Shown: positions 20,634 through 47,721 of the stretch, piece by piece | Layout of the letters: each line of letters begins with the position of its first letter | Position numbering within the stretch: position 1 is the first letter of the stretch | Assembly (NCBI GenBank): GCA_041166245.1 | Contig: JBEEFQ010000270.1 | Location: 1-51,418 of the forward strand | Origin: Actinomycetota bacterium | Lineage (GTDB): Bacteria > Actinomycetota > Acidimicrobiia > Acidimicrobiales > JAFATL01 | Direction of reading: 5' to 3' | DNA: 51,418 bases | Translations under genes and position numbers: made by a program | The notes under the pieces: generated by a model | What the model was told of the DNA's origin: nothing | Databases searched by the model: none | What the model saw: the letters and a program-made list of their open reading frames with translations, nothing else

Positions 20634-22241
20634 TCAGAAGTGGAGCTGGAGCTGGACGACGAGGCGTTCGACGGGGTCGTCGAGGTCGAGGGCGGCCACC
20701 TCGGCCAGGCGGCGGAGGCGGTAGCGGAAGGTGTTGGCGTGCACGCCCTGGGCTGCCGCCGCGGCGGGCACGTCGCCGAGGGCGGCGAAGTAGGCCCGAA
20801 GGGTCGGCACGTACTCGGTGCCCTTGTCGCGGTCGTGGTCGGCCAGCAGCGCGAGCTTGCCGACCCGCAGCCCCTCGTCCCTGGCCGCCAGCTCCTGCAG
20901 GCGCTGCAGCACGACCCGGGCCCGCACTTCGTCGGCGGTGGCGACGGGGCCAGCGTGCGGTGAGGCGGCGAGGGCCCGTAGCACGCGGTCCGCTTCGTCG
21001 CGGGACTCGACCAGCCCGGGCAGGCCCGGCACGGTGGCGCCGATGGCGGCCCGCAGCTCGACCTGCAGCGCCTCCGCGGCGCGCTCGGTGACGCCGCGGG
21101 CCAGCGCCGGGAGCCGGCCCCGGTCCTCGGGGTCGCCGGTGGGCGTGAGCAGGTACACGAGCGGACCGACCGCGACGGCGGTTGCCGGTCGGCGGTAGGA
21201 CTCGCAGTACAGCGTGACCAGGCTGGCCACCCGGTCGGCGACGGCCGCGGCAGCGGCCTGGTCGTCACGCCGCTCGACGGGCTCGAAGGCGACGATCGTG
21301 AGCGGGGTGGCGGGCGTGATCTGCAGCACGGGTGCCAGGGCCTCGGGCGCGGCCCGTCCCTCCAGGGCGGCGCGCAGCAGCTCGGTGCGCCGCCCCCGCT
21401 CGAGGTCGGCGCCCGAGTGGTACCGGAGGAGGTGGAGGGCGGCGATGCGCGCCGCCTCCAGCAGGGCGACCTCGGCCTCCTCCTGCACGGTGCCGTCGGC
21501 CACCTGGACCCAGATGGTGCCGAGGATCTCGTCACCGGCCCGGATCGACGTCGCCAGCCGGGGACGGATGCCGAGCTCGGCGTAGTCGACTCGCACCACG
21601 CCGGCCTCGCGTGCCAGGCGCCGGAAGACGCCATCGGCCTGCAACCGGGCGATCCACTCGTCGGGGACCCGCCGGCCGAGAATGGTGGCCCGCCGCCCCT
21701 CGTCGATCTCGTCGTCATGGCTCGAGTAGGCGAGCACGGTCGAGCGGGGGTCCTCGATGGTGACCGGACCACCGACCATCGCCGCCACCGCGTTGGCCAG
21801 GGCGAAGAGATCGCCGATGGGCACCCCACCCGGCGCCCGGTCGGGGGGAAGCCCCGCGGCCGCCGTCGCCGTCCGCAGCAGGGCGTGCAGCTGCCCCCAG
21901 GCCACCTCGGCGGTGGCCACGAGCAGGGCCACGCCCGCCTCCCGCGCCGCATCGCCCAGGTCGCCCACGTCGTTGGCCGCCCTCGACTTGAGCACGACGG
22001 CGGCCACCCCGGCCGCGCCGGCCCGGCGCACCAGGTCGGCGGCCTGGGGCTGCCGGGGATCGACACCCACGGCCAGCAGCACGTCGTCGGGCGCACCCAC
22101 CCAGTCCTCGGCCGGATCGAGGATGACCGATTCGCCCACAGCCACGTCGAGGCCCTTCGGCGCGGCGACGACGTCGATGATCCCCCCGCCCACGTGCTCG
22201 ACGACCTCGCCCAGCCGGGGTGCGTCGGCGCCGGTGGCCAT
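20634..22241 (-). CDS. PucR/CdaR family transcriptional regulator
   Basis: DLFALANAVAAMVGGPVTIED...VLAYS; C-terminal HTH TLRAYF...HANTFRYRLRR. Confidence 0.92.
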   Translation of the reverse strand: MATGADAPRLGEVVEHVGGGIIDVVAAPKGLDVAVGESVILDPAEDWVGAPDDVLLAVGVDPRQPQAADLVRRAGAAGVAAVVLKSRAANDVGDLGDAAREAGVALLVATAEVAWGQLHALLRTATAAAGLPPDRAPGGVPIGDLFALANAVAAMVGGPVTIEDPRSTVLAYSSHDDEIDEGRRATILGRRVPDEWIARLQADGVFRRLAREAGVVRVDYAELGIRPRLATSIRAGDEILGTIWVQVADGTVQEEAEVALLEAARIAALHLLRYHSGADLERGRRTELLRAALEGRAAPEALAPVLQITPATPLTIVAFEPVERRDDQAAAAAVADRVASLVTLYCESYRRPATAVAVGPLVYLLTPTGDPEDRGRLPALARGVTERAAEALQVELRAAIGATVPGLPGLVESRDEADRVLRALAASPHAGPVATADEVRARVVLQRLQELAARDEGLRVGKLALLADHDRDKGTEYVPTLRAYFAALGDVPAAAAAQGVHANTFRYRLRRLAEVAALDLDDPVERLVVQLQLHF

Positions 22242-22327
22242 ACCGAAACGGTACCGGGACGTGTTCCGAACGGGCCGGTCGAGGGCTACAATCGTCGATT
22301 CCCCCGTTGGGGGGCAGGGGGCGCAGG

Positions 22328-24460
22328 TTGGCGACACATCCCGATCTCCAGGACGAGCAGGCCTACATCGACAAGGCCTACGGGCGGCTGGAGGCCATGC
22401 GGCAGGCGGCGGCTGATCGCCGGGATGCGGCCCTCGTCCAGGGCAAGGGCGGCACGTTCCAGGCGCGCACCGAGCGGGACATCGTCGTGCGCTCGGCCCT
22501 GCACCGCCTCGAGCAGCTGGACATCGGGCGCGAACCGCTCTGCTTCGGCCGCATCGACGAGCTGCCGGACAACGGCCACGGCGCCGACACCTTCTACATC
22601 GGACGCTTGGCCGTCTCCGACGTCGACCAGGAGCCCCTGGTCGTGGACTGGCGGGCGCCCATCGCCGAGCCCTTCTATCGGGCCACCGGGCGCCACCCCA
22701 TGGGCCTGCGCCGCCGGCGCCACTTCGCCACCGACGGCCCCCGCATCACCGGCATCGAGGACGAGGTCTTCAGCGCGGACGGAACGGTCGAGGGCAACGG
22801 CGATATCGAGGTGGCGGGGCCGGGCGCCCTGCTGGCCGCCCTCGAACGGTCGCGCTCGGGGCGCATGCGCGACATCGTCGCCACCGTCCAGCGTGAGCAG
22901 GACGAGATCATCCGGGCCCCGCTCCGGGGCGCCCTCGTCGTGCAGGGTGGCCCTGGGACGGGAAAAACGGCTGTCGCCCTCCACCGGGCCGCCTACCTGC
23001 TCTACACCCACCGCTTCCCGCTCGAGACCCAGGGCGTGCTCGTGGTCGGGCCCAATCCGGTGTTCCTCCGCTACATCGAGCAGGTCCTGCCGTCGCTGGG
23101 CGAGACCGGCGTCTCGCTGACCACCATCGACGGGCTGGTCGACATCCACGCCAGAGGCACCGACCCGCCCGCGGCCGCCCGCCTCAAAGGCGACGTGCGC
23201 ATGGTGCAGTTCCTCGCCCGTGCCGTGCGCGACCGCGAGCGGGCGCTGCCGGCCGACGTCGAGATCCCGTACGGCCCCTACATCCTGCGACTGACCCGCG
23301 CCGACTCGGCCGCGGTCGTGCAGACCGCGAAGCGACGGGGCGGCGCCCACAACCCCCGGCGCCGCCAGGCCGAGACGCTCGTCATCGAGCGCCTCTACCG
23401 GCAGTACCGCGCCGCCGTCGAGCGCACTCGCCGCACCAACGTGCGGGTGGGCGCTGAGGAGGTCGGACTCACCGACGAGGCCGAGTTCGCGCGGGACCTC
23501 AGGCTCGACGGCGCCCTCGTCCCCTTGCTCGACCGCATGTGGCCCGTCCTCACCCCCCAGGAGCTGCTGCACGACCTGTTCGGCGCTCCCGCCCTCCTGC
23601 AGCTGGCCGGGCGCGACGTCCTCTCGGCCGAGGAGATCGCCGCCCTGCACCGGCCTCGGAGCGCCTCGTTCGACGAAGTGCCGTGGACGTCGGCCGACCT
23701 CGGGCTGCTCGACGAGGCGCGCGTGCTGCTGGGCGCCCGTCGCCGGCGCGCCACCGATCACGAGGTCCGCACCTACGGGCACATCGTCGTGGACGAGGCC
23801 CAGGACCTCTCGCCCATGCAGCTGCGAGTGCTGGCCCGCCGCTCGCTCGCGGGCTCGATGACCGTCGTGGGCGACATCGCCCAAGGCACCGGCCACTGGG
23901 CGCCCGACCGCTGGGAGCAGGTGCTCGAGCACCTGCCGGCTCGCGCCGACGCCCACCTGGTCGAGCTCACCGTCAACTACCGCACGCCGGGCGAGATCAT
24001 GGACCTGGCCACGCGGCTGCTGCCGGAAGCCGCACCCGGGGTGCGTCCGCCCCGGTCGGTGCGGCGCACGGGCGAGGGGCCGCGCGTCGTGCAGGCGGGC
24101 GAGGACCTGGCCAGCCGCGTCGCCGAGGTCGTCCGCGCTCTCGCCGACGAGCCGGGCACCGTCGCCGTCATCGCCCCGCCGTCGCTGTCCGATGCCGTCG
24201 GTCGGGCCTTCGACGCCGGCGGTGTCGCCTACGGCGATCCCGCCAGCTCAGGCCTCGACGCCCACGTCACGCTGCTCCCGCTCACCACCGCCAAGGGCCT
24301 CGAGTTCGACCAAGTCGTCGTGGTCGAGCCGTCCCGGCTCGTGCGTGAGGCGCCCCAGGGCCTGCGCGCCCTCTTCGTCGCCCTCACCCGCCCCACCCGC
24401 TCACTGACCATCGTCCACGCCGAGCCCCTCCCCGACGCCCTGGCCACCGCCCCCGTCTGA
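22328..24460 (+). CDS. HelD-family RNA polymerase-associated SF1 helicase-like protein
   Basis: LCFGRID, YIGR, VDWRAP, MRDIVATVQREQD, GGPGTGKTAVALHRAAYLLY, DEAQD, NYRTP, AKGLEFD; TTG start. Confidence 0.88.
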   Translation: MATHPDLQDEQAYIDKAYGRLEAMRQAAADRRDAALVQGKGGTFQARTERDIVVRSALHRLEQLDIGREPLCFGRIDELPDNGHGADTFYIGRLAVSDVDQEPLVVDWRAPIAEPFYRATGRHPMGLRRRRHFATDGPRITGIEDEVFSADGTVEGNGDIEVAGPGALLAALERSRSGRMRDIVATVQREQDEIIRAPLRGALVVQGGPGTGKTAVALHRAAYLLYTHRFPLETQGVLVVGPNPVFLRYIEQVLPSLGETGVSLTTIDGLVDIHARGTDPPAAARLKGDVRMVQFLARAVRDRERALPADVEIPYGPYILRLTRADSAAVVQTAKRRGGAHNPRRRQAETLVIERLYRQYRAAVERTRRTNVRVGAEEVGLTDEAEFARDLRLDGALVPLLDRMWPVLTPQELLHDLFGAPALLQLAGRDVLSAEEIAALHRPRSASFDEVPWTSADLGLLDEARVLLGARRRRATDHEVRTYGHIVVDEAQDLSPMQLRVLARRSLAGSMTVVGDIAQGTGHWAPDRWEQVLEHLPARADAHLVELTVNYRTPGEIMDLATRLLPEAAPGVRPPRSVRRTGEGPRVVQAGEDLASRVAEVVRALADEPGTVAVIAPPSLSDAVGRAFDAGGVAYGDPASSGLDAHVTLLPLTTAKGLEFDQVVVVEPSRLVREAPQGLRALFVALTRPTRSLTIVHAEPLPDALATAPV

Positions 24461-24506: not shown

Positions 24507-24890
24507 TCAGGGGCCGAGAACCGCTTCGGCCTCGATCTCGACCTTCCACCGTGGGTCGAGCAGGGCCGCGACCACCACCATGGTGGCGGCGGGGCGGATC
24601 TGGCCGAAGACGTCGCCGTGGACCCGGCCGACGACGTCGCCGTCAGCCGCGTCGGTGAGGAACATGCGGGTGCGCACGACGTCGTTCGCGGTCGCGCCCG
24701 CTTCCGCGAGTGCAGCCTCGATGATCTCCAGGCAGCGACGGGCCTGGGTCTCGGCGTCGGCCGCGCACGACCCGTCGGGCCACACCGGCGCGGTGCCCGA
24801 CACCACCACGCGGTTGCCCACGCGCACGGCTCGGCTGAAGCCGATGGTCGGCTCGAAGGGCGACCCGGAGCTGATCAAGCGGCGTTCCAC
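24507..24890 (-). CDS. RidA/YjgF family protein
   Basis: FEPTIGFSRAVRVG, SGTA, DVVRTRMF, RPAATMV, VEIEAEA. Confidence 0.92.
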   Translation of the reverse strand: MERRLISSGSPFEPTIGFSRAVRVGNRVVVSGTAPVWPDGSCAADAETQARRCLEIIEAALAEAGATANDVVRTRMFLTDAADGDVVGRVHGDVFGQIRPAATMVVVAALLDPRWKVEIEAEAVLGP

Positions 24891-24971: not shown

Positions 24972-25826
24972 TCAGGCGGGGAGGAGGTCGCCGAGCGAGG
25001 CGGGTCGGGCCAGGCGCTCGAGCGTGCCGCGGCGGTCGCCGATGGCGGCGAAGTAGGCGTCCTTGCGGCGGGCGACGCGACCGCCGGGGCGGGCCACGGC
25101 CGGCGCGGTGTCGGGCTGCAGGTGGGCATCGAGGCCTTCGCGCAGCAGCGTGAGCGCCTCGGCCCGCATCTGGGAGATGCGGCTGTCGGTGACGCCGAGC
25201 TCTTCCCCGAGCTCGTGCATCGACCGCTCCTCGAAGAAGTACCCGATGACGACCTTTTGCAGCCGGGCCGGCAGGGCGGCGACGGCGTCGACCAGGTAGG
25301 CCTGCCGTTCCCGCTCGAGCAGGCAGGCGTCGGGGGCGCTGCCCTCGTCGACCGGCAGGAGGTCGTCGCCCGATCCGTCCTCGAACAGTGACTCGTAGTT
25401 GACGACGTTGGCCTGGGCCACGCCCGCGGCCACCGCGTGGAGATCGGACACGTCGCAGCCCAGCTTCTCCGCCACCTCGGCGGGGGAGGGTGCCCGTCCG
25501 AGAAGGGCGGTCAGCTCCTCGCCTGCCTTGTGGGCGGCGCGGGCCGAGGCCCGCACCGAGCGGGTGGCCCAGTCGCGCGAGCGCAGCTCGTCGAGCAGGG
25601 CACCCCGGATGCGCCGGCTGGCGAAGCGGTCGAACGGAACGCCACGCTCCTCATCGAAGCCACGGGCCGCCTGGGCCAGCCCCGCCATGCCCGCCGACTC
25701 GAGGTCATCGCGGCTCACGTAGGACGGGATGCGCTGGGACATCTCCGCCACCAGGTAGTGCACGAGCGGCATGTGGGCGCGCACGAGAGCGTCCTCCGCC
25801 CCCCTGGTCCCCTGTGCCCCATCCAT
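24972..25826 (-). CDS. fliA: FliA/WhiG-family (sigma28-type) RNA polymerase sigma factor
   Basis: DDLESAG, FDEERGVPF, RIRGALLDELRSRDW, region 4 ELGEELGVTDSRISQMR; start 25826 or 25838. Confidence 0.88.
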   Translation of the reverse strand: MDGAQGTRGAEDALVRAHMPLVHYLVAEMSQRIPSYVSRDDLESAGMAGLAQAARGFDEERGVPFDRFASRRIRGALLDELRSRDWATRSVRASARAAHKAGEELTALLGRAPSPAEVAEKLGCDVSDLHAVAAGVAQANVVNYESLFEDGSGDDLLPVDEGSAPDACLLERERQAYLVDAVAALPARLQKVVIGYFFEERSMHELGEELGVTDSRISQMRAEALTLLREGLDAHLQPDTAPAVARPGGRVARRKDAYFAAIGDRRGTLERLARPASLGDLLPA

Positions 25827-25952
25827 CGCATGGACCATCGGCGCGACGGCCGCGCTTCCGTATCGGCCGGGCGGGCGATCCGCCCGCACCTGGACAACCC
25901 GGTCGAACGGTGACTGCCTGGTCGCGGGGACTAGTCCCCCTACGATGGCCTC

Positions 25953-26579
25953 GTGGGCGACGAGGTGGCTGTGGTCGTCGACCAGTGGGCCCTCGTCCGC
26001 CTGGGGATCACCGCCGTGCTGCAGTCGGAGGGGATCGAGGTGGTGGCCGAGGAGGCCGCTGGTCGTGATGGTCTGCTGCGCGCCCGCACCCTCGAACCGA
26101 GCCTGCTGGTGCTGGGCGCCATGGCTGACCTCTCCATGGCGGAGGCGGTCAACCAGGCACGTCAGCTGCCGGTGCGGCCGCAGGTGCTGGTCCTCGTATC
26201 GGCAATGGTCCCCGCCGATCTGAGGGAACTGATGGAATCGGCTCCCGACGGCGTGCTCGTGCGGTCGGCCGGCGCCGAGGAGGTGCGCGACGCCATCGTC
26301 CGCATGCGGGCCGGTGAGCGGGTGGTGGCGCCCGCCTTGCTGGGCGCAGTGATGGACGGTCTCCAGGGCGGCGCGGCCGACGCCGGTCCGCTCACCACCA
26401 AGGAGCAGGAGGTGCTGGCCCGGTTGGCCGAAGGCCGCTCCAACCAGCAGATCGCCGAGGCCATGTTCGTCACGCCCGCGACCGTGAAGACCCATTTGTC
26501 GAACATCTACGCCAAGCTCGGCGTGGGCAGCCGCCAGGAGGCGCTGGCCCGGGCGGTGGCTTTGGGGCTGTTGGGATAG
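25953..26579 (+). CDS. NarL/LuxR-type response regulator with a degenerate (pseudo) receiver domain
   Basis: LuxR HTH LTTKEQEVL...SNQQIA...TVKTHLSNIYAKLG; receiver lacks the phospho-Asp (LLVLG), has DQ for DD and R for K. Confidence 0.9.
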   Translation: MGDEVAVVVDQWALVRLGITAVLQSEGIEVVAEEAAGRDGLLRARTLEPSLLVLGAMADLSMAEAVNQARQLPVRPQVLVLVSAMVPADLRELMESAPDGVLVRSAGAEEVRDAIVRMRAGERVVAPALLGAVMDGLQGGAADAGPLTTKEQEVLARLAEGRSNQQIAEAMFVTPATVKTHLSNIYAKLGVGSRQEALARAVALGLLG

Positions 26580-26588
26580 GTCGAACGG

Positions 26589-26616
26589 CTCACGTCCGGG
26601 GTGACGCGGCCGATCA
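26589..26616 (+). promoter_or_regulatory. Sigma28/FliA-type promoter upstream of flgN
   Basis: CTCA-N16-GCCGATCA, ending 9 nt before the ATG at 26626. Confidence 0.72.
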
Positions 26617-26625
26617 GAAGACGTC

Positions 26626-26997
26626 ATGCCGTTGCGCGAGGTCTCCGACGTCCTGTGGCGGGAGCGACGCCTCCTCGAGGTGCTCGAGTTCAAGCTCGAG
26701 GAGGAGCGCCTGCTCGCCGAGGCCGGTCACCAGCGCTGGCTGCACCGGGCCACCCGCGAGGTCGCCCTCGTGCGCAGTGAGCTGCGCCGGGCCGAGCTCG
26801 ACCGGGCCATCGCGGTGGCCGCTGCCGCCAATGACCTCGGCATCGAGCACCCGACCACCCTGCGGGACCTGGCGACGGCCGCGCCCGCGCCGTGGTCAGG
26901 GATCTTCGAGCGCCACCGCGACGCCCTGCTCCGCGCCGCCGACCAGGTGGCCGAGCTCAGCGCCCGCTGCGAGCGGGCCGCGGCCGGTGCGCCGTGA
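26626..26997 (+). CDS. flgN: FlgN-like flagellar export chaperone (short, 123 aa)
   Basis: SDVLWRERRLLEVLEFKLEEE...RWLHRATREV...ELDRA...APAPWSGIFERHR matches the actinobacterial FlgN pattern. Confidence 0.8.
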   Translation: MPLREVSDVLWRERRLLEVLEFKLEEERLLAEAGHQRWLHRATREVALVRSELRRAELDRAIAVAAAANDLGIEHPTTLRDLATAAPAPWSGIFERHRDALLRAADQVAELSARCERAAAGAP

Positions 26998-27131
26998 ACG
27001 GACCTGACGAACCGTCCGAGGAGGACGAGGAGCTTCCCGTCGATCGCGACCTCAGCGAGCTGACGGCGGACGAAGTGCGCCGCCGCACCGAGGCGCCGCT
27101 GCCGCGCTCGCTCATCGAGTTCCTGCGGTAG
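26994..27131 (+). CDS. 45-aa acidic peptide with an FlgL-like C-terminus (hypothetical)
   Basis: GTGA overlap with flgN; MNGPDEPSEEDEELPVDRDLSELTADEVRRRTEAPLPRSLIEFLR; fills the gap to pdxH. Confidence 0.65.
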   Translation: MNGPDEPSEEDEELPVDRDLSELTADEVRRRTEAPLPRSLIEFLR

Positions 27132-27134
27132 CAA

Positions 27135-27710
27135 GTGAGGGTGGACCCCCTCGGCACGGTGCAGCAATGGCTCGACGAGGCCGTCGCGGCGGGCATCGAG
27201 GAGCCGTCCGCGATGACGCTCGCCACCGCCACGCCAGACGGCGACGTCTCGGCCCGCATGGTGCTGCTGCGGGGCCTCGACGACCGCGGCCTCGTCTTCT
27301 ACACGAACCGGCGCAGCGCCAAGGGACGCGAGCTCGCCGCCAACCCCCGCGCCGCGGCCGTCCTGCACTGGCAGGCCCTTGGACGCCAGGTCCGGGTGAC
27401 CGGCAGGGTCACCGAGGCCGACGACGCCACATCCGACGCCTACTTCGCGGCCCGGGCCCGAGGCAGTCAGCTCAGCGCGTGGGCTTCGCCCCAGAGCGAG
27501 ATCATCACCGACCGCGCCGTCCTGGACGACGCAGTGGCCGAGCTGAGCCGGCGCTACCCCGACGCCGTCCCCCGCCCGCCCTGGTGGGGCGGGTACTGGC
27601 TCGCCCCCGACGTCGTCGAGCTCTGGACCCATCGCGACAACCGTCTCCACGACCGCCAGCGCTTCACCCGCGACGGCGACGCCTGGCGCCACGACCTCCT
27701 CGCGCCCTGA
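27135..27710 (+). CDS. pdxH: Pyridoxamine 5'-phosphate oxidase
   Basis: AMTLAT, SARMVLL, FYTN..SAKG, RQVRV, SAWASPQS, WGGY, NRLHDR. Confidence 0.95.
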   Translation: MRVDPLGTVQQWLDEAVAAGIEEPSAMTLATATPDGDVSARMVLLRGLDDRGLVFYTNRRSAKGRELAANPRAAAVLHWQALGRQVRVTGRVTEADDATSDAYFAARARGSQLSAWASPQSEIITDRAVLDDAVAELSRRYPDAVPRPPWWGGYWLAPDVVELWTHRDNRLHDRQRFTRDGDAWRHDLLAP

Positions 27711-46070: not shown

Positions 46071-46099
46071 CTCAAGGTTTCGGCCCTGGCTGCCGATGA
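46071..46099 (+). promoter_or_regulatory. Sigma28/FliA-type promoter upstream of the diguanylate cyclase
   Basis: CTCAAG-N15-GCCGATGA, 38 nt before the ATG at 46138, with AT-rich sequence upstream. Confidence 0.72.
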
Positions 46100-46137: not shown

Positions 46138-47721
46138 ATGGCGACCGCAGGCGAGCGAGTCACCTTCCGATCACTGTGTGCTGTCGCCGCGACGCTCACC
46201 GTCGTCTTCGTGGCCTGGCTCCAGTTCGGATTCGGTGGCGAGCGCGTCACCACGGCCGTGGACGACTACGGCGAAGCGGCGGCCGCCCTCGTCGCCGCCA
46301 GCGCCTGCTTCTGGGCCGCCCACCGGTCTGACGCCAAGGCCCGCACCGGGTGGAGCTTGCTGGGCCTGGCCGCGCTGGCCTGGGGACTGGGCGAGCTGTG
46401 GTGGGCCCACCAGGAGGTCGTCCGGGACAGGGACGTCCCGTTCCCGTCCGTCGCCGACGCCGGGTTCCTCGCCGCTGTTCCCCTGGCTGCACTCGGCATG
46501 CTGCTGTGGCCCGGCGCCTTCCATGACGTGTCGCACCGCCTGCGCGCCGCCCTCGACGGGGGCGTCATCGCCGCCTCCCTGCTCTTCGTCAGCTGGGCCC
46601 TGGTGCTGGGGCCGCTGTGGAGCGCGCCCGAGGATCGTCTGTTGGCGACGGTGATCGCCCTCGCCTATCCGGTGGGCGACGTGGCCATCCTCACGATCGT
46701 GCTGCTCGTCATCGCATCCGCCGACCGGCGCATGTGGGGTCCACTGCTGCTCGTCGGCGCAGGGCTCTCGGCCATCGCAGTCAGCGACAGCGCCTTTGCC
46801 TACTTCACCGACAAGGGCGTCTACGGCGCCGATCTCACCGGCGTGGGTTGGTTCGCGGGGTGGCTGCTCGTCGCCCTCGCTGCGCTGCACCCGGCCGCGA
46901 CGGCGTCCACCGCCGACCGCATGGTGTCCGACGACGCGAGCGAGAGCCTGCGCGCCGTGCTGTTGCCGTACGTCCCGCTCGTGCTCGCCGCCGGGCTGCT
47001 GCTCGGCCGGGTGAGTGCGGGCGCCGGCATCGGACCCTTCTTGGCGTGGGACCTCGGCGTCGTCGCCCTCTTGGTGCTGATTCGCCAGCTCATCGTCGTC
47101 CTCGACAACCGCAGCCTGGCTGGTCGCCTGGGCCGGGCCATCGGTGAGCTACGAGGCCGGGAGGATCAGCTCGAGTACCAGGCGTTCCACGACGCCCTCA
47201 CGGGCATGGCCAACCGGGCGCTCTTCTGGGACAGGCTCGGCCATGCCGTCGCCCGCGCCGAACGCGACCACCGTCCCGTCGCCGTGATCTACCTCGACCT
47301 GGACGGCTTCAAGGCGATCAACGACCGGTACGGCCACCTGGTCGGCGACATGATCCTCGCCGGCGTGGCCGAGCGGCTCGAGACCTGCGTGCGTCCGGCC
47401 GACACACTGGCCCGACTCGGCGGCGACGAGTTCGGTGTGGTGGTGGAGGCAGACGACGGGCGGCCGCCCGAGGAGCTCGGCCACCGATTGCTCGCCGCCC
47501 TCACCGACCCGTTCCGCGTCGGCACCGAGCAGGTAGCGGTCGCCGCCAGCGTGGGCATGGCCATCGGGATCTGGTCAGGAGCTGATCAGGCCGTCGCCGC
47601 GGCCGACGCTGCCATGTACCGCGCCAAGTCCGCGGGCAAGGGTCGCGTCGTGGTCGACGTCAGCCGGCGCGCCGCGCACGCGTTGGCCGGCGGCGACTCT
47701 GCTTTCCAGAACGGCGGATGA
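46138..47721 (+). CDS. Membrane-bound diguanylate cyclase (multi-TM sensor plus GGDEF)
   Basis: About 9 TM segments (PFPSVADAGF, LAYPVGD), HDALTGMANR, DLDGFK, I-site RPAD, active site GGDEF. Confidence 0.92.
   Translation: MATAGERVTFRSLCAVAATLTVVFVAWLQFGFGGERVTTAVDDYGEAAAALVAASACFWAAHRSDAKARTGWSLLGLAALAWGLGELWWAHQEVVRDRDVPFPSVADAGFLAAVPLAALGMLLWPGAFHDVSHRLRAALDGGVIAASLLFVSWALVLGPLWSAPEDRLLATVIALAYPVGDVAILTIVLLVIASADRRMWGPLLLVGAGLSAIAVSDSAFAYFTDKGVYGADLTGVGWFAGWLLVALAALHPAATASTADRMVSDDASESLRAVLLPYVPLVLAAGLLLGRVSAGAGIGPFLAWDLGVVALLVLIRQLIVVLDNRSLAGRLGRAIGELRGREDQLEYQAFHDALTGMANRALFWDRLGHAVARAERDHRPVAVIYLDLDGFKAINDRYGHLVGDMILAGVAERLETCVRPADTLARLGGDEFGVVVEADDGRPPEELGHRLLAALTDPFRVGTEQVAVAASVGMAIGIWSGADQAVAAADAAMYRAKSAGKGRVVVDVSRRAAHALAGGDSAFQNGG

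Follow-up and report, generated by a model that had tools for sequence, protein, structure and literature searches.

A sigma-28 locus with a short FlgN and a FlgL tail in a non-flagellated actinobacterium: a probable repurposed relic of flagellar regulation

What is left of the regulatory part of a flagellar gene cluster when the flagellum is lost, and is what is left still of use to the cell? The question is raised by four adjacent genes on a contig of 51,418 nucleotides (GenBank JBEEFQ010000270.1, assembly GCA_041166245.1), which was analysed over its full length and is termed the window here. The window is contig C270 of a metagenome-assembled genome of the order Acidimicrobiales (G000; 4.15 Mb in 339 contigs, 87% complete, ~72% G+C). 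The four genes encode a sigma-28 family sigma factor, read from the reverse strand, a pseudo-response regulator, a short FlgN and a 45-codon open reading frame (ORF) that corresponds to the tail of FlgL (Table 1). An earlier note, made from the sequence of the window, had named these four parts, the FlgL tail and the dead receiver included, and all four are confirmed at the place it gave. That note saw two explanations: flagellar parts repurposed as a stand-alone partner-switching or developmental circuit, or a detached satellite of a flagellar regulon. The analysis presented here favours the first in a modified form. With a probability of about 60%, the locus is a selected and repurposed relic of a flagellar regulator, and neither the satellite of a hidden flagellum nor plain decay.

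Origin of the locus and loss of the flagellum

In flagellated relatives the same locus contains the sigma gene and, beside it, the series regulator-flgN-flgK-flgL-fliW-csrA. In G000, flgK, the body of flgL, fliW and csrA are all gone, and the tail ORF followed by pdxH is found instead. Housekeeping genes that flank the module, those of a UvrD-like helicase and RidA beyond the sigma gene and pdxH beyond the tail, are retained in part or in full in the window, in G001, G002, G012, G014 and G021, and in several further loci. In a tree of sigma genes, the window sigma belongs to a 14-row clade (Shimodaira–Hasegawa-like approximate likelihood ratio test, SH-aLRT, 100) together with sigma genes that lie beside flgN-flgK-flgL in flagellated relatives, and it is separate from a near-universal WhiG paralogue that G000 carries on contig C191. 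The tree was built from the sigma genes of relatives, and on it rests the label 'WhiG1-like' for the window sigma, after the WhiG1 and WhiG2 lineages of a recent preprint (Denis et al., bioRxiv 10.64898/2026.01.14.699351). The locus is of flagellar origin. Its ancestral layout comprised the sigma gene (fliA/whiG1) and the pseudo-response regulator gene, then a sigma-28 promoter driving flgN-flgK-flgL-fliW-csrA; after loss of the flagellum there remain the sigma factor, the dead-receiver regulator, a C-terminally shortened FlgN and the last ~30 residues of FlgL.

The flagellar genes themselves have been lost. Profile searches, with controls that matched in the expected model organisms, gave no match in G000 for the FlhA, flagellin, FliP, rod, FliW and CsrA families, nor for Flagellin_N, and the lack of structural flagellar genes that the earlier note saw in the window also holds for the assembled genome (FlhA, flagellin, FliP, rod). 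In G001, a 96% complete genome of the same genus, FlhA, rod, FliW and CsrA were not found. Among 41 relatives, rod, FliW and CsrA are carried by the same 10 genomes, nine of which also carry FlhA; another 10, G001 included, have a FlgN match without FlhA, rod, FliW or CsrA. Over the 401 genomes of the order, FlgN was found in 116 and FlhA in 79; 60 genomes have both, and 56 have FlgN without FlhA (one of these, the unpublished G346, was counted only). Because of these 56 genomes, annotation matches to FlgN or FliA are not evidence of motility.

Twenty of the 56 FlhA-negative loci were examined. Seven have a separate tail ORF, seven an in-frame fusion of FlgN and tail, and four no tail; of the remaining two, G230 is really flagellar and the other is cut by the end of its contig. 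In three single-contig and two near-complete carriers, rod and FliP were found in none of the five, flagellin was above the cut-off in none, and FlhA is absent from the three single-contig genomes.

These data bear on whether the locus might be a satellite, with an ordinary flagellar system hidden in the 13% of the genome that is not assembled. The 87% completeness of G000 and its 339 contigs would allow for this, and, as G022 and G230 illustrate, a search can miss FlhA where other flagellar genes are present. However, six marker families are missing together in G000, and G001, at 96% completeness, likewise has no match for FlhA, rod, FliW or CsrA. In addition, the tail ORF and pdxH occupy the exact spot of the relatives' flgK-flgL-fliW-csrA, and closed genomes of relatives have the same module without FlhA, rod, FliP or flagellin. 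The satellite explanation is therefore hardly credible. According to the earlier note, repurposing would also fall if these genes were the only fliA and flgN of a complete flagellar system, and with the flagellar markers absent this is not the case.

Selection, the FlgL tail and its predicted contact with FlgN

The tail peptide has no match in Pfam or NCBIfam. FlgL of flagellated relatives ends in ...AYxAxLxxxxxxxxxSLxxFL(R/A), and the small post-flgN ORFs of non-flagellated genomes end alike. A profile made from nine tails finds the extreme C-terminus of FlgL, its last ~48 residues, with E-values of 1.2e-6 (residues 267–314 of 315) and 7e-4 in an eight-sequence set, and has no match to FlgK or FliC (flagellin; E ≥ 0.028). 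Tails of recently deleted loci match FlgL pairwise, with E-values of 2e-8 to 1e-7, and the tails of the window and G001 are 53% identical. A FlgL is recognized by D0/D1 helices at its N- and C-termini, which enclose a variable domain; here only the C-terminal ~30 residues are present, and the tail ORF is a fragment of FlgL, not a FlgL.

The tail ORF is best drawn from a GTG that overlaps the TGA of flgN. A start-stop overlap of this kind (GTGA or ATGA), and with it translational coupling, is also found in G001, the G002-type loci, G003 and G021. As the start overlaps the flgN stop, and flgK of flagellated relatives starts at or within about a dozen bases of that stop, the stub is probably a flgK start joined to a flgL end and translated by coupling to flgN. 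In other genomes the tail is fused to FlgN. The fused family comprises 40 clusters in which the C-terminal motif LR.P.LL.FLR is invariant; the last 11 residues, which lie past a variable linker, hold eight of the 26 invariant columns (L179, R180, P182, L184, L185, F187, L188 and R189).

Ratios of nonsynonymous to synonymous substitution (dN/dS, NG86) between the window and G001 are 0.22 for the sigma factor, 0.39 for the regulator and 0.18 for FlgN, with flanking genes at 0.17–0.23. Within the tail, the last 22 codons give 0.22 and the preceding 28 codons 1.19. Five G002-type loci show the same pattern, with 0.01–0.12 for FlgN, 0.05–0.18 for the regulator, 0–0.54 for the last 22 codons of the tail and 0.65–1.5 for the part upstream. 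Because dN/dS is low in these regions and neutral in the upstream codons, selection is seen to act on the proteins, and within the tail on the C-terminal helix only.

How often the junction genes were lost can be judged from a tree of FlgN from 97 loci. The next gene is flgK in 53 of them, a tail ORF in 13, a tail followed by fliW in three, and fliW-csrA without a tail in six; six further rows were scored as fused, 12 are cut by contig ends and four are unclassified. Two of the six 'fused' rows look like script artefacts, as L073 reads through into FlgK and L133 ends like an ordinary FlgN. Tail-bearing or FliW-only loci fall in at least three well-supported places among the FlgK-linked ones (supports 95–99), a count of independent losses that rests on a tree of a short protein with many open forks. 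The window sits apart from these nested places, in basal rows that the tree does not resolve, and an RpoB tree of 24 genomes does not resolve whether the non-flagellated carriers form a single clade.

In six metagenome loci (L126, L132, L116, L097, L124 and L129), FliW and CsrA come directly after FlgN; flgK, flgL and the tail have all disappeared. Because FlgN is followed in them by FliW-CsrA alone, this pair can outlive the junction proteins.

The pattern of loss also invites the view that a flagellar cluster was lost not long ago and that the four genes are what it left behind, without function and bound to erode. The loss of flgK and flgL is recurrent and has left graded intermediates (FlgN-tail-FliW-CsrA, and FlgN-FliW-CsrA without a tail), FlgN of G004 has been cut to ~92 amino acids (aa) and fused to the tail, and the first half of the tail ORF is under neutral evolution (dN/dS 0.65–1.5). 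Erosion, however, does not account for reading frames that are all intact though the sigma factors are just 54–60% identical across genomes, nor for dN/dS values of sigma, regulator and FlgN (0.07–0.39) on par with those of flanking housekeeping genes. Nor does it account for a C-terminal motif that is invariant in 40 fused proteins, or for a promoter and a GTGA coupling that are conserved. Plain decay is thus very unlikely. The four genes are conserved together and under purifying selection, the opposite of the decay and scattered conservation that, in the earlier note, would also have spoken against a repurposed circuit.

FlgN has been shortened in a particular way. The window protein matches PF05130 with 32.3 bits against a cut-off of 30.5, and its AlphaFold2 (AF2) model has a mean predicted local distance difference test score (pLDDT) of 93.7. 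The top TM-score in the PDB belongs to FlgN of Pseudomonas (2fup; TMq 0.71, rmsd 3.8 Å), with a Foldseek E-value of 0.54, which is not significant; every Foldseek E-value exceeds 0.2, and it is the TM-score alone that points to FlgN. A PDB sequence search gave nothing relevant (top E 0.22, an unrelated receptor), and NCBIfam has no family for FlgN. In length it is 123 aa, against 160–172 aa in flagellated relatives, where flgK is the next gene. The motif Y-x-x-x-G occurs in the last 40 residues of FlgN in 51 of the 53 FlgK-linked loci, in none of the 13 tail-linked ones, in one of three with tail and FliW and in one of six with FliW only; the window FlgN ends before this segment. In Salmonella, the conserved C-terminal Tyr-122 of FlgN docks to the export gate protein FlhA (PMC8527033). 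If the motif is equated with Tyr-122, as we infer, the gate-docking part of FlgN would have been shed once the gate was gone, with the chaperone core retained. By context, a FlgN gene is expected to adjoin its flgK/flgL clients or flgM (Pallen et al., in PMC4054197); in G000 flgK, a whole flgL and flgM are all absent.

The smallest chaperone-tail form seen is L020 (G004:C406), in which FlgN of ~92 residues is fused directly to ...LPRSLADFLR; it has a very long branch in the FlgN tree. A metagenome scan with a single FlgN protein as query gave 598 pattern matches, none of which was confirmed, and alignment A1 as query worked.

Structure prediction bears on contact between FlgN and the tail. The predicted FlgN-tail complex reaches an ipSAE of 0.75 (runs 0.75, 0.78 and 0.75) with a best control of 0.00; the 0.75 mark is reached by 58 of 80 solved complexes and by two of 110 mismatched pairs. 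At least 82% of contacts are common to the runs, and the partner pLDDT is at least 52. On the tail side the predicted interface consists of residues 35–37 and 39–45, with the invariant L40, F43 and L44, and on the FlgN side it includes R60 and L79, which are invariant, and E13 and R98, which are nearly so. When one natural fusion is modelled with AF2, the tail helices have a pLDDT of 87–94 beyond a disordered linker. The contact is supported by the natural fusions in seven of the genomes examined and by this model, and FlgN probably binds the tail, as modelled, through its end ...PLPRSLIEFLR. FlgN of Salmonella is known to bind the C-termini of FlgK and FlgL. FliW was considered as a receptor of the tail and was rejected for G000, where neither FliW nor CsrA was found.

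FlgN and the tail could still be kept for a job that has nothing to do with the sigma factor. FlgN might serve a different client (a protein of the pilus or a secreted one, for example), the tail might stabilize FlgN, or the ORF might act as a translational coupler to pdxH and later genes. The last idea is suggested by pdxH, which starts 3 nt past the tail ORF, an order that recurs in G001, G002, G004, G021, G145 and G149; no terminator-like site was found in the gap, and pdxH is possibly co-transcribed with flgN and the tail. Sigma-28-type promoters precede type IV pilus genes, as would suit a pilus client. Coupling alone, however, leaves unexplained the protein-level selection on FlgN and the tail helix, as well as the fusions in other gene contexts (the sigma gene is convergent in G083, G138 and G343), and FlgN adjoins a sigma-28 gene in every context examined. 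A role unrelated to the sigma factor is therefore regarded as unlikely.

Promoters, paralogues and a possible switch on the sigma factor

The flgN gene has the promoter that the earlier note proposed. The sequence CTCA-N16-GCCGATCA is a single match in the window, with 0.16 expected and at least one match in 15 of 100 shuffles, and is weak when taken alone. It is convincing because of its recurrence in orthologous loci: CTCA-N16-GCCGAT is found exactly upstream of flgN in nine of 14 and with one base changed in four more, i.e. in 13 of 14, and a relaxed pattern is present in 16 of 20 further loci. Denis et al. give the consensus CTCA-N16-17-GCCGA for WhiG1 and T(A/C)AA-N16-GCCGATAA for WhiG2, and the flgN promoter fits the former.

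The window sigma has Pfam scores of 46.8, 37.0 and 40.5 bits for regions 2, 3 and 4. Its TIGR02479 (FliA_WhiG) score is 189.2 bits on the protein, with a cut-off of 189.6, and 190.1 bits, over the cut-off, in the genome search, a membership that is borderline but consistent. The ORF of 573 aa is over-extended; similarity to orthologues starts at the ATG at 25838, and this start is used in Table 1. A genome-wide search for further copies, which the earlier note had proposed, yielded a second and stronger WhiG-type sigma (G000:C191:8562-9236; TIGR02479 279 bits). This paralogue is found in nearly all 41 relatives, with or without flagellar genes, and is probably of the WhiG2 type. In G001 it adjoins xerC, dprA and comM-like genes. 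Just one small ORF of the genome (C329:29469-30038, forward strand) has the motif E(X)3S(X)2R(X)3Q(X)3D of the RsiG type, in one copy, and it is a candidate for a single-motif RsiG that partners the C191 sigma. RsiG was set aside as a partner of the window sigma, as the sole ORF with the motif sits on another contig; FlgN of the window lacks the motif. As an RsiG-like ORF and a WhiG2-like sigma are found elsewhere in the genome, the window module is a second, separate system.

Other partners of the sigma factor were also searched for. FlgM (PF04316) was found in none of the 41 genomes, the 10 flagellated ones included, although a very divergent FlgM could escape the search. Of classical partner-switching parts of the RsbV/RsbW type, STAS is absent from the four proteins, and none of the 52 HATPase_c matches of the genome lies on the window's contig. 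The absence of FlgM and of a kinase, which had been noted for the window, therefore stands, and any partner switch here would be analogous, not homologous, to the RsbV/RsbW type.

The sigma-28 genes of a third clade ('clade B') are each convergent with a gene for a FlgN-like protein, to which the FlgL tail is often fused (L022 in G013, L026 and L027 in G018, L040 in G030:C6, and L185, L186 and L203). This module is present in flagellated and non-flagellated genomes. Because G030 carries one besides its true flagellar locus, the duplicate module may predate the loss of the flagellum.

The regulator has an intact GerE helix-turn-helix (HTH; 69.8 bits), and its receiver scores 19.5 bits for Response_reg (PF00072), under the cut-off of 30.2. 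A response regulator has an acceptor Asp, an acidic pair and a conserved Lys in its receiver. Aligned to VraR, the window protein has Gly in place of the phospho-acceptor Asp, Arg in place of the conserved Lys, and DQ in place of the DD pair. The same substitutions recur in each of the 10 orthologues whose receiver is aligned, and two of these come from flagellated genomes.

The region between the divergent sigma and regulator genes holds a palindrome, GACTAGTC, that occurs once in the window. With at most one mismatch it is present in 13 of 17 such intergenic regions, namely in 13 of the 14 from non-flagellated loci and in none of the three from flagellated loci, and it may have arisen with the change of function. 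GCCGAT is found on the sigma strand in 14 of the 17 regions. In the window, CTCA or TAAA was not found 16–17 nt upstream of GCCGATAC, whose role as a promoter is that of a candidate. Before the regulator, TACGAT, TACCAT, TAGAGT, TACAGT or TAGAAT stands at the same spot in most loci, as judged by eye without a formal count, and the regulator mRNA may be leaderless. Together they suggest that the region holds an operator and that each of the divergent genes is controlled separately.

What else might the sigma factor transcribe? A genome-wide search for CT[CA]A-Nx-GCCGAT gave 26 sites with x = 16 and 34 with x = 17; nine other spacers gave 4–16. From ORFs with such a site near their start, 20 were picked by hand, and 14 of these belong to pilus or signalling families. 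Those of the pilus encode one PilB-like and two PilT-like ATPases, one pilin and one TadE; those of signalling encode five GGDEF-EAL proteins, two GGDEF proteins, one HD-GYP-like protein and one single-domain (CheY-like) response regulator. Of the remaining six, one is a PD40/Calx-beta protein, one is a CAP-domain protein, and four have no Pfam match. In the genome, eight genes for enzymes of cyclic di-GMP (c-di-GMP) have such a site just upstream, and a GGDEF diguanylate cyclase gene of the window is one of them.

On these data the locus looks like a flagellar checkpoint turned free-standing gene switch. In the mechanism proposed, the window sigma, or the WhiG2-type paralogue, would transcribe flgN and the tail from CTCA-N16-GCCGAT; FlgN would bind the tail and would have given up docking to the export gate. 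These steps are fairly well supported by the promoter, the predicted complex and the missing Tyr-motif segment. With less support, the pair might act as a chaperone with a built-in ligand that stays in the cell, FlgN, the tail and the pseudo-regulator might together form a regulatory switch on the sigma factor, and the likely regulon of the latter here might consist of type IV pilus and c-di-GMP genes.

A broader and more tentative proposal is that FlgN, the FlgL C-terminal helix and the pseudo-regulator form a checkpoint that replaces FlgM for actinobacterial WhiG1 sigmas and is kept as a general pilus/c-di-GMP switch after the flagellum is lost. In flagellated species, FlgN would be set free when FlgK and FlgL are exported once the hook is complete, and would then act on the sigma factor directly or via the regulator. 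In species without a flagellum, the FlgN-binding helix of FlgL would be retained as a built-in ligand, separate or fused. This is possible, but it is doubtful as it stands. Of the stand-alone repurposed circuit that the earlier note envisaged, origin and selection are supported, since neither a complete flagellar system nor decay was found; partner switching is supported in part, by the predicted FlgN-tail binding and the natural fusions.

Several points weigh against a repurposed switch, or lessen the force of what has been said for it. As G000 is 87% complete, absence in G000 itself leans on its relatives, and as the genomes are related, the counts are not numbers of independent events. The tail is absent in four of the 20 FlhA-negative loci and in the six metagenome loci that keep FliW-CsrA, and in one family the fusions have a degenerate end, ...SLVDAVRG. 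When the window's own tail is compared pairwise by BLAST with FlgL, FlgK and FliC, no match is significant (best against FlgL, E 3.5–8.7), and the case for its homology is made by the profile and by G001. The score of the FlgN-tail complex is a model confidence, with a partner pLDDT of 52–53, and likeness to a chaperone-substrate pair may have helped it. The 20 'regulon' ORFs were hand-picked as well-coded ORFs that start no more than 45 nt from a site. The WhiG1 and WhiG2 regulons are not separable by promoter sequence, and either paralogue could read the sites, a difficulty also reported by Denis et al. Finally, the sequencing runs that contain the stretch are 10 soil DNA runs, with no RNA run among those listed.

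Relation to known systems, and features of the window

The late operon flgM-flgN-flgK-flgL(-fliW-csrA) of Bacillus subtilis and Salmonella, in which FlgN is the export chaperone of FlgK and FlgL (PMC4054197; PMC8527033), is the closest model for the ancestral locus in gene order, flgN-flgK-flgL-fliW-csrA being the order in flagellated relatives. Also alike are the fold of the FlgN family, the sigma-28-dependent transcription that the promoter suggests, and the predicted binding of the FlgL C-terminal helix by FlgN. In contrast to that operon, the locus described here has no flagellum, export gate, FlgM or FlgK to go with it, FlgL is represented by ~30 conserved residues, and FlgN lacks the Tyr-motif segment. 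Unlike Bacillus, a pseudo-response regulator stands in the place of flgM upstream of flgN.

A second parallel is WhiG1, the sigma-28 lineage that goes with flagellar clusters and stands apart from the WhiG2/RsiG system (Denis et al.). In the preprint, its anti-sigma factor is given as unknown, FlgM as missing from actinobacterial clusters, and its predicted targets as including motility, type IV pilus and c-di-GMP genes. The window sigma resembles WhiG1 in its grouping with sigma genes of flagellar loci, the CTCA-N16-GCCGA-type promoter and the lack of a detectable FlgM. It differs in that WhiG1 is co-distributed with flagellar clusters in the preprint, whereas here the sigma factor persists without the cluster, in company with FlgN and a FlgL stub. 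The control of actinobacterial flagellar sigmas without FlgM is stated there to be an open question, for which the locus offers a candidate set of four proteins.

In non-flagellated actinobacteria, the WhiG-RsiG-c-di-GMP switch joins a sigma-28 factor and a small helical partner to type IV pili and c-di-GMP enzymes (PMC8325347). The window module is similar in having a sigma-28 factor in a non-flagellated actinobacterium with a small helical partner candidate and proposed pilus and c-di-GMP targets. It differs in that its FlgN has no RsiG motif, the RsiG-motif ORF and the WhiG2-like sigma being on C329 and C191. Streptomyces WhiG controls whiI, which encodes an atypical response regulator, and the earlier note drew a parallel with this pair. 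It is an analogy and no more: in both cases a factor of the sigma-28 family has as its partner a NarL-type regulator without a working phosphorylation pocket. The genome has a better WhiG-type sigma on C191, and the window sigma belongs to the flagellum-linked lineage. Furthermore, unlike whiI, the regulator gene is a divergent neighbour of the sigma gene, the dead pocket is already present in flagellated relatives, and the gene appears to have its own TAnnnT-type promoter.

Partner switching is familiar from flagellar regulation, an example being that of FliW, CsrA and flagellin. Some flagellar chaperones have a second role in regulation: FliT acts as a negative regulator, FliS binds to FlgM, and the translation of FlgM is promoted by FlgN (PMC8527033; PMC4054197). 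By analogy, the free or client-occupied state of FlgN would set late gene expression here. Unlike those systems, in which the client is exported via the flagellum, nothing can be exported here, and the client is often tethered covalently to its chaperone.

Each part of the locus belongs to or derives from a known family. What appears to be new is that a sigma of the flagellar type, a pseudo-regulator, a shortened FlgN and the tail of FlgL, as a peptide or in a fusion, are retained together without a flagellum. A FlgN/FlgL-tail module in non-flagellated bacteria was not described in the literature searched, including the main texts of PMC10746217 and of the preprint, whose supplementary per-genome tables could hold cases. 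The words 'remnant', 'relic' and 'whiG' do not occur in the main text of the former, nor 'FlgN' and 'Acidimicrobi' in that of the latter. The locus can be looked at as a flagellar locus stripped to what selection keeps: a sigma factor, a decoy regulator, a chaperone and the helix of the client that, by prediction, the chaperone binds. The reduction of a structural protein to a peptide ligand, often fused to its own chaperone, would be an unusual evolutionary route to a regulator.

Table 1. Features of the window, with positions counted from its first nucleotide
Feature	Position	Strand	Evidence or remark
PucR-type regulator	20634..22337	-	HTH_30, GGDEF_2, weak PucR match
UvrD-like helicase	22220..24460	+	
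RidA	24507..24890		
Sigma-28 family sigma factor, flagellar-cluster-linked lineage (clade A, WhiG1-like)	24972..25838	-	Sigma70 r2/r3/r4, TIGR02479
GCCGATAC, -10-like element on sigma-coding strand	25860..25867	-	21 nt before sigma ATG
8-bp palindrome GACTAGTC, candidate operator	25929..25936		between sigma and regulator genes
TACGAT, TAnnnT-type -10 hexamer	25941..25946	+	6 nt before regulator GTG, read by eye
NarL/LuxR-type regulator, pseudo-receiver	25953..26579	+	GerE HTH, sub-cut-off Response_reg
Putative sigma-28 (WhiG1-type) promoter CTCA-N16-GCCGATCA of flgN	26589..26616	+	9 nt before flgN ATG
Short FlgN, 123 aa	26626..26997	+	PF05130
FlgL-tail mini-gene, 45 aa	26994..27131	+	GTGA overlap with flgN, tail profile
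pdxH (pyridoxamine 5'-phosphate oxidase)	27135..27710	+	PNPOx_N 95 bits; 3 nt past tail ORF
Sigma-28-type site CTCAAGG...GCCGATGA	46071..46099		upstream of GGDEF gene
GGDEF diguanylate cyclase	46138..47721	+	PF00990 140 bits; 38 nt past the sigma-28-type site

On the sigma side, the module is flanked in the window by a gene for a PucR-type regulator, next to the UvrD-like helicase and RidA genes. The last two are syntenic with the module in several families.

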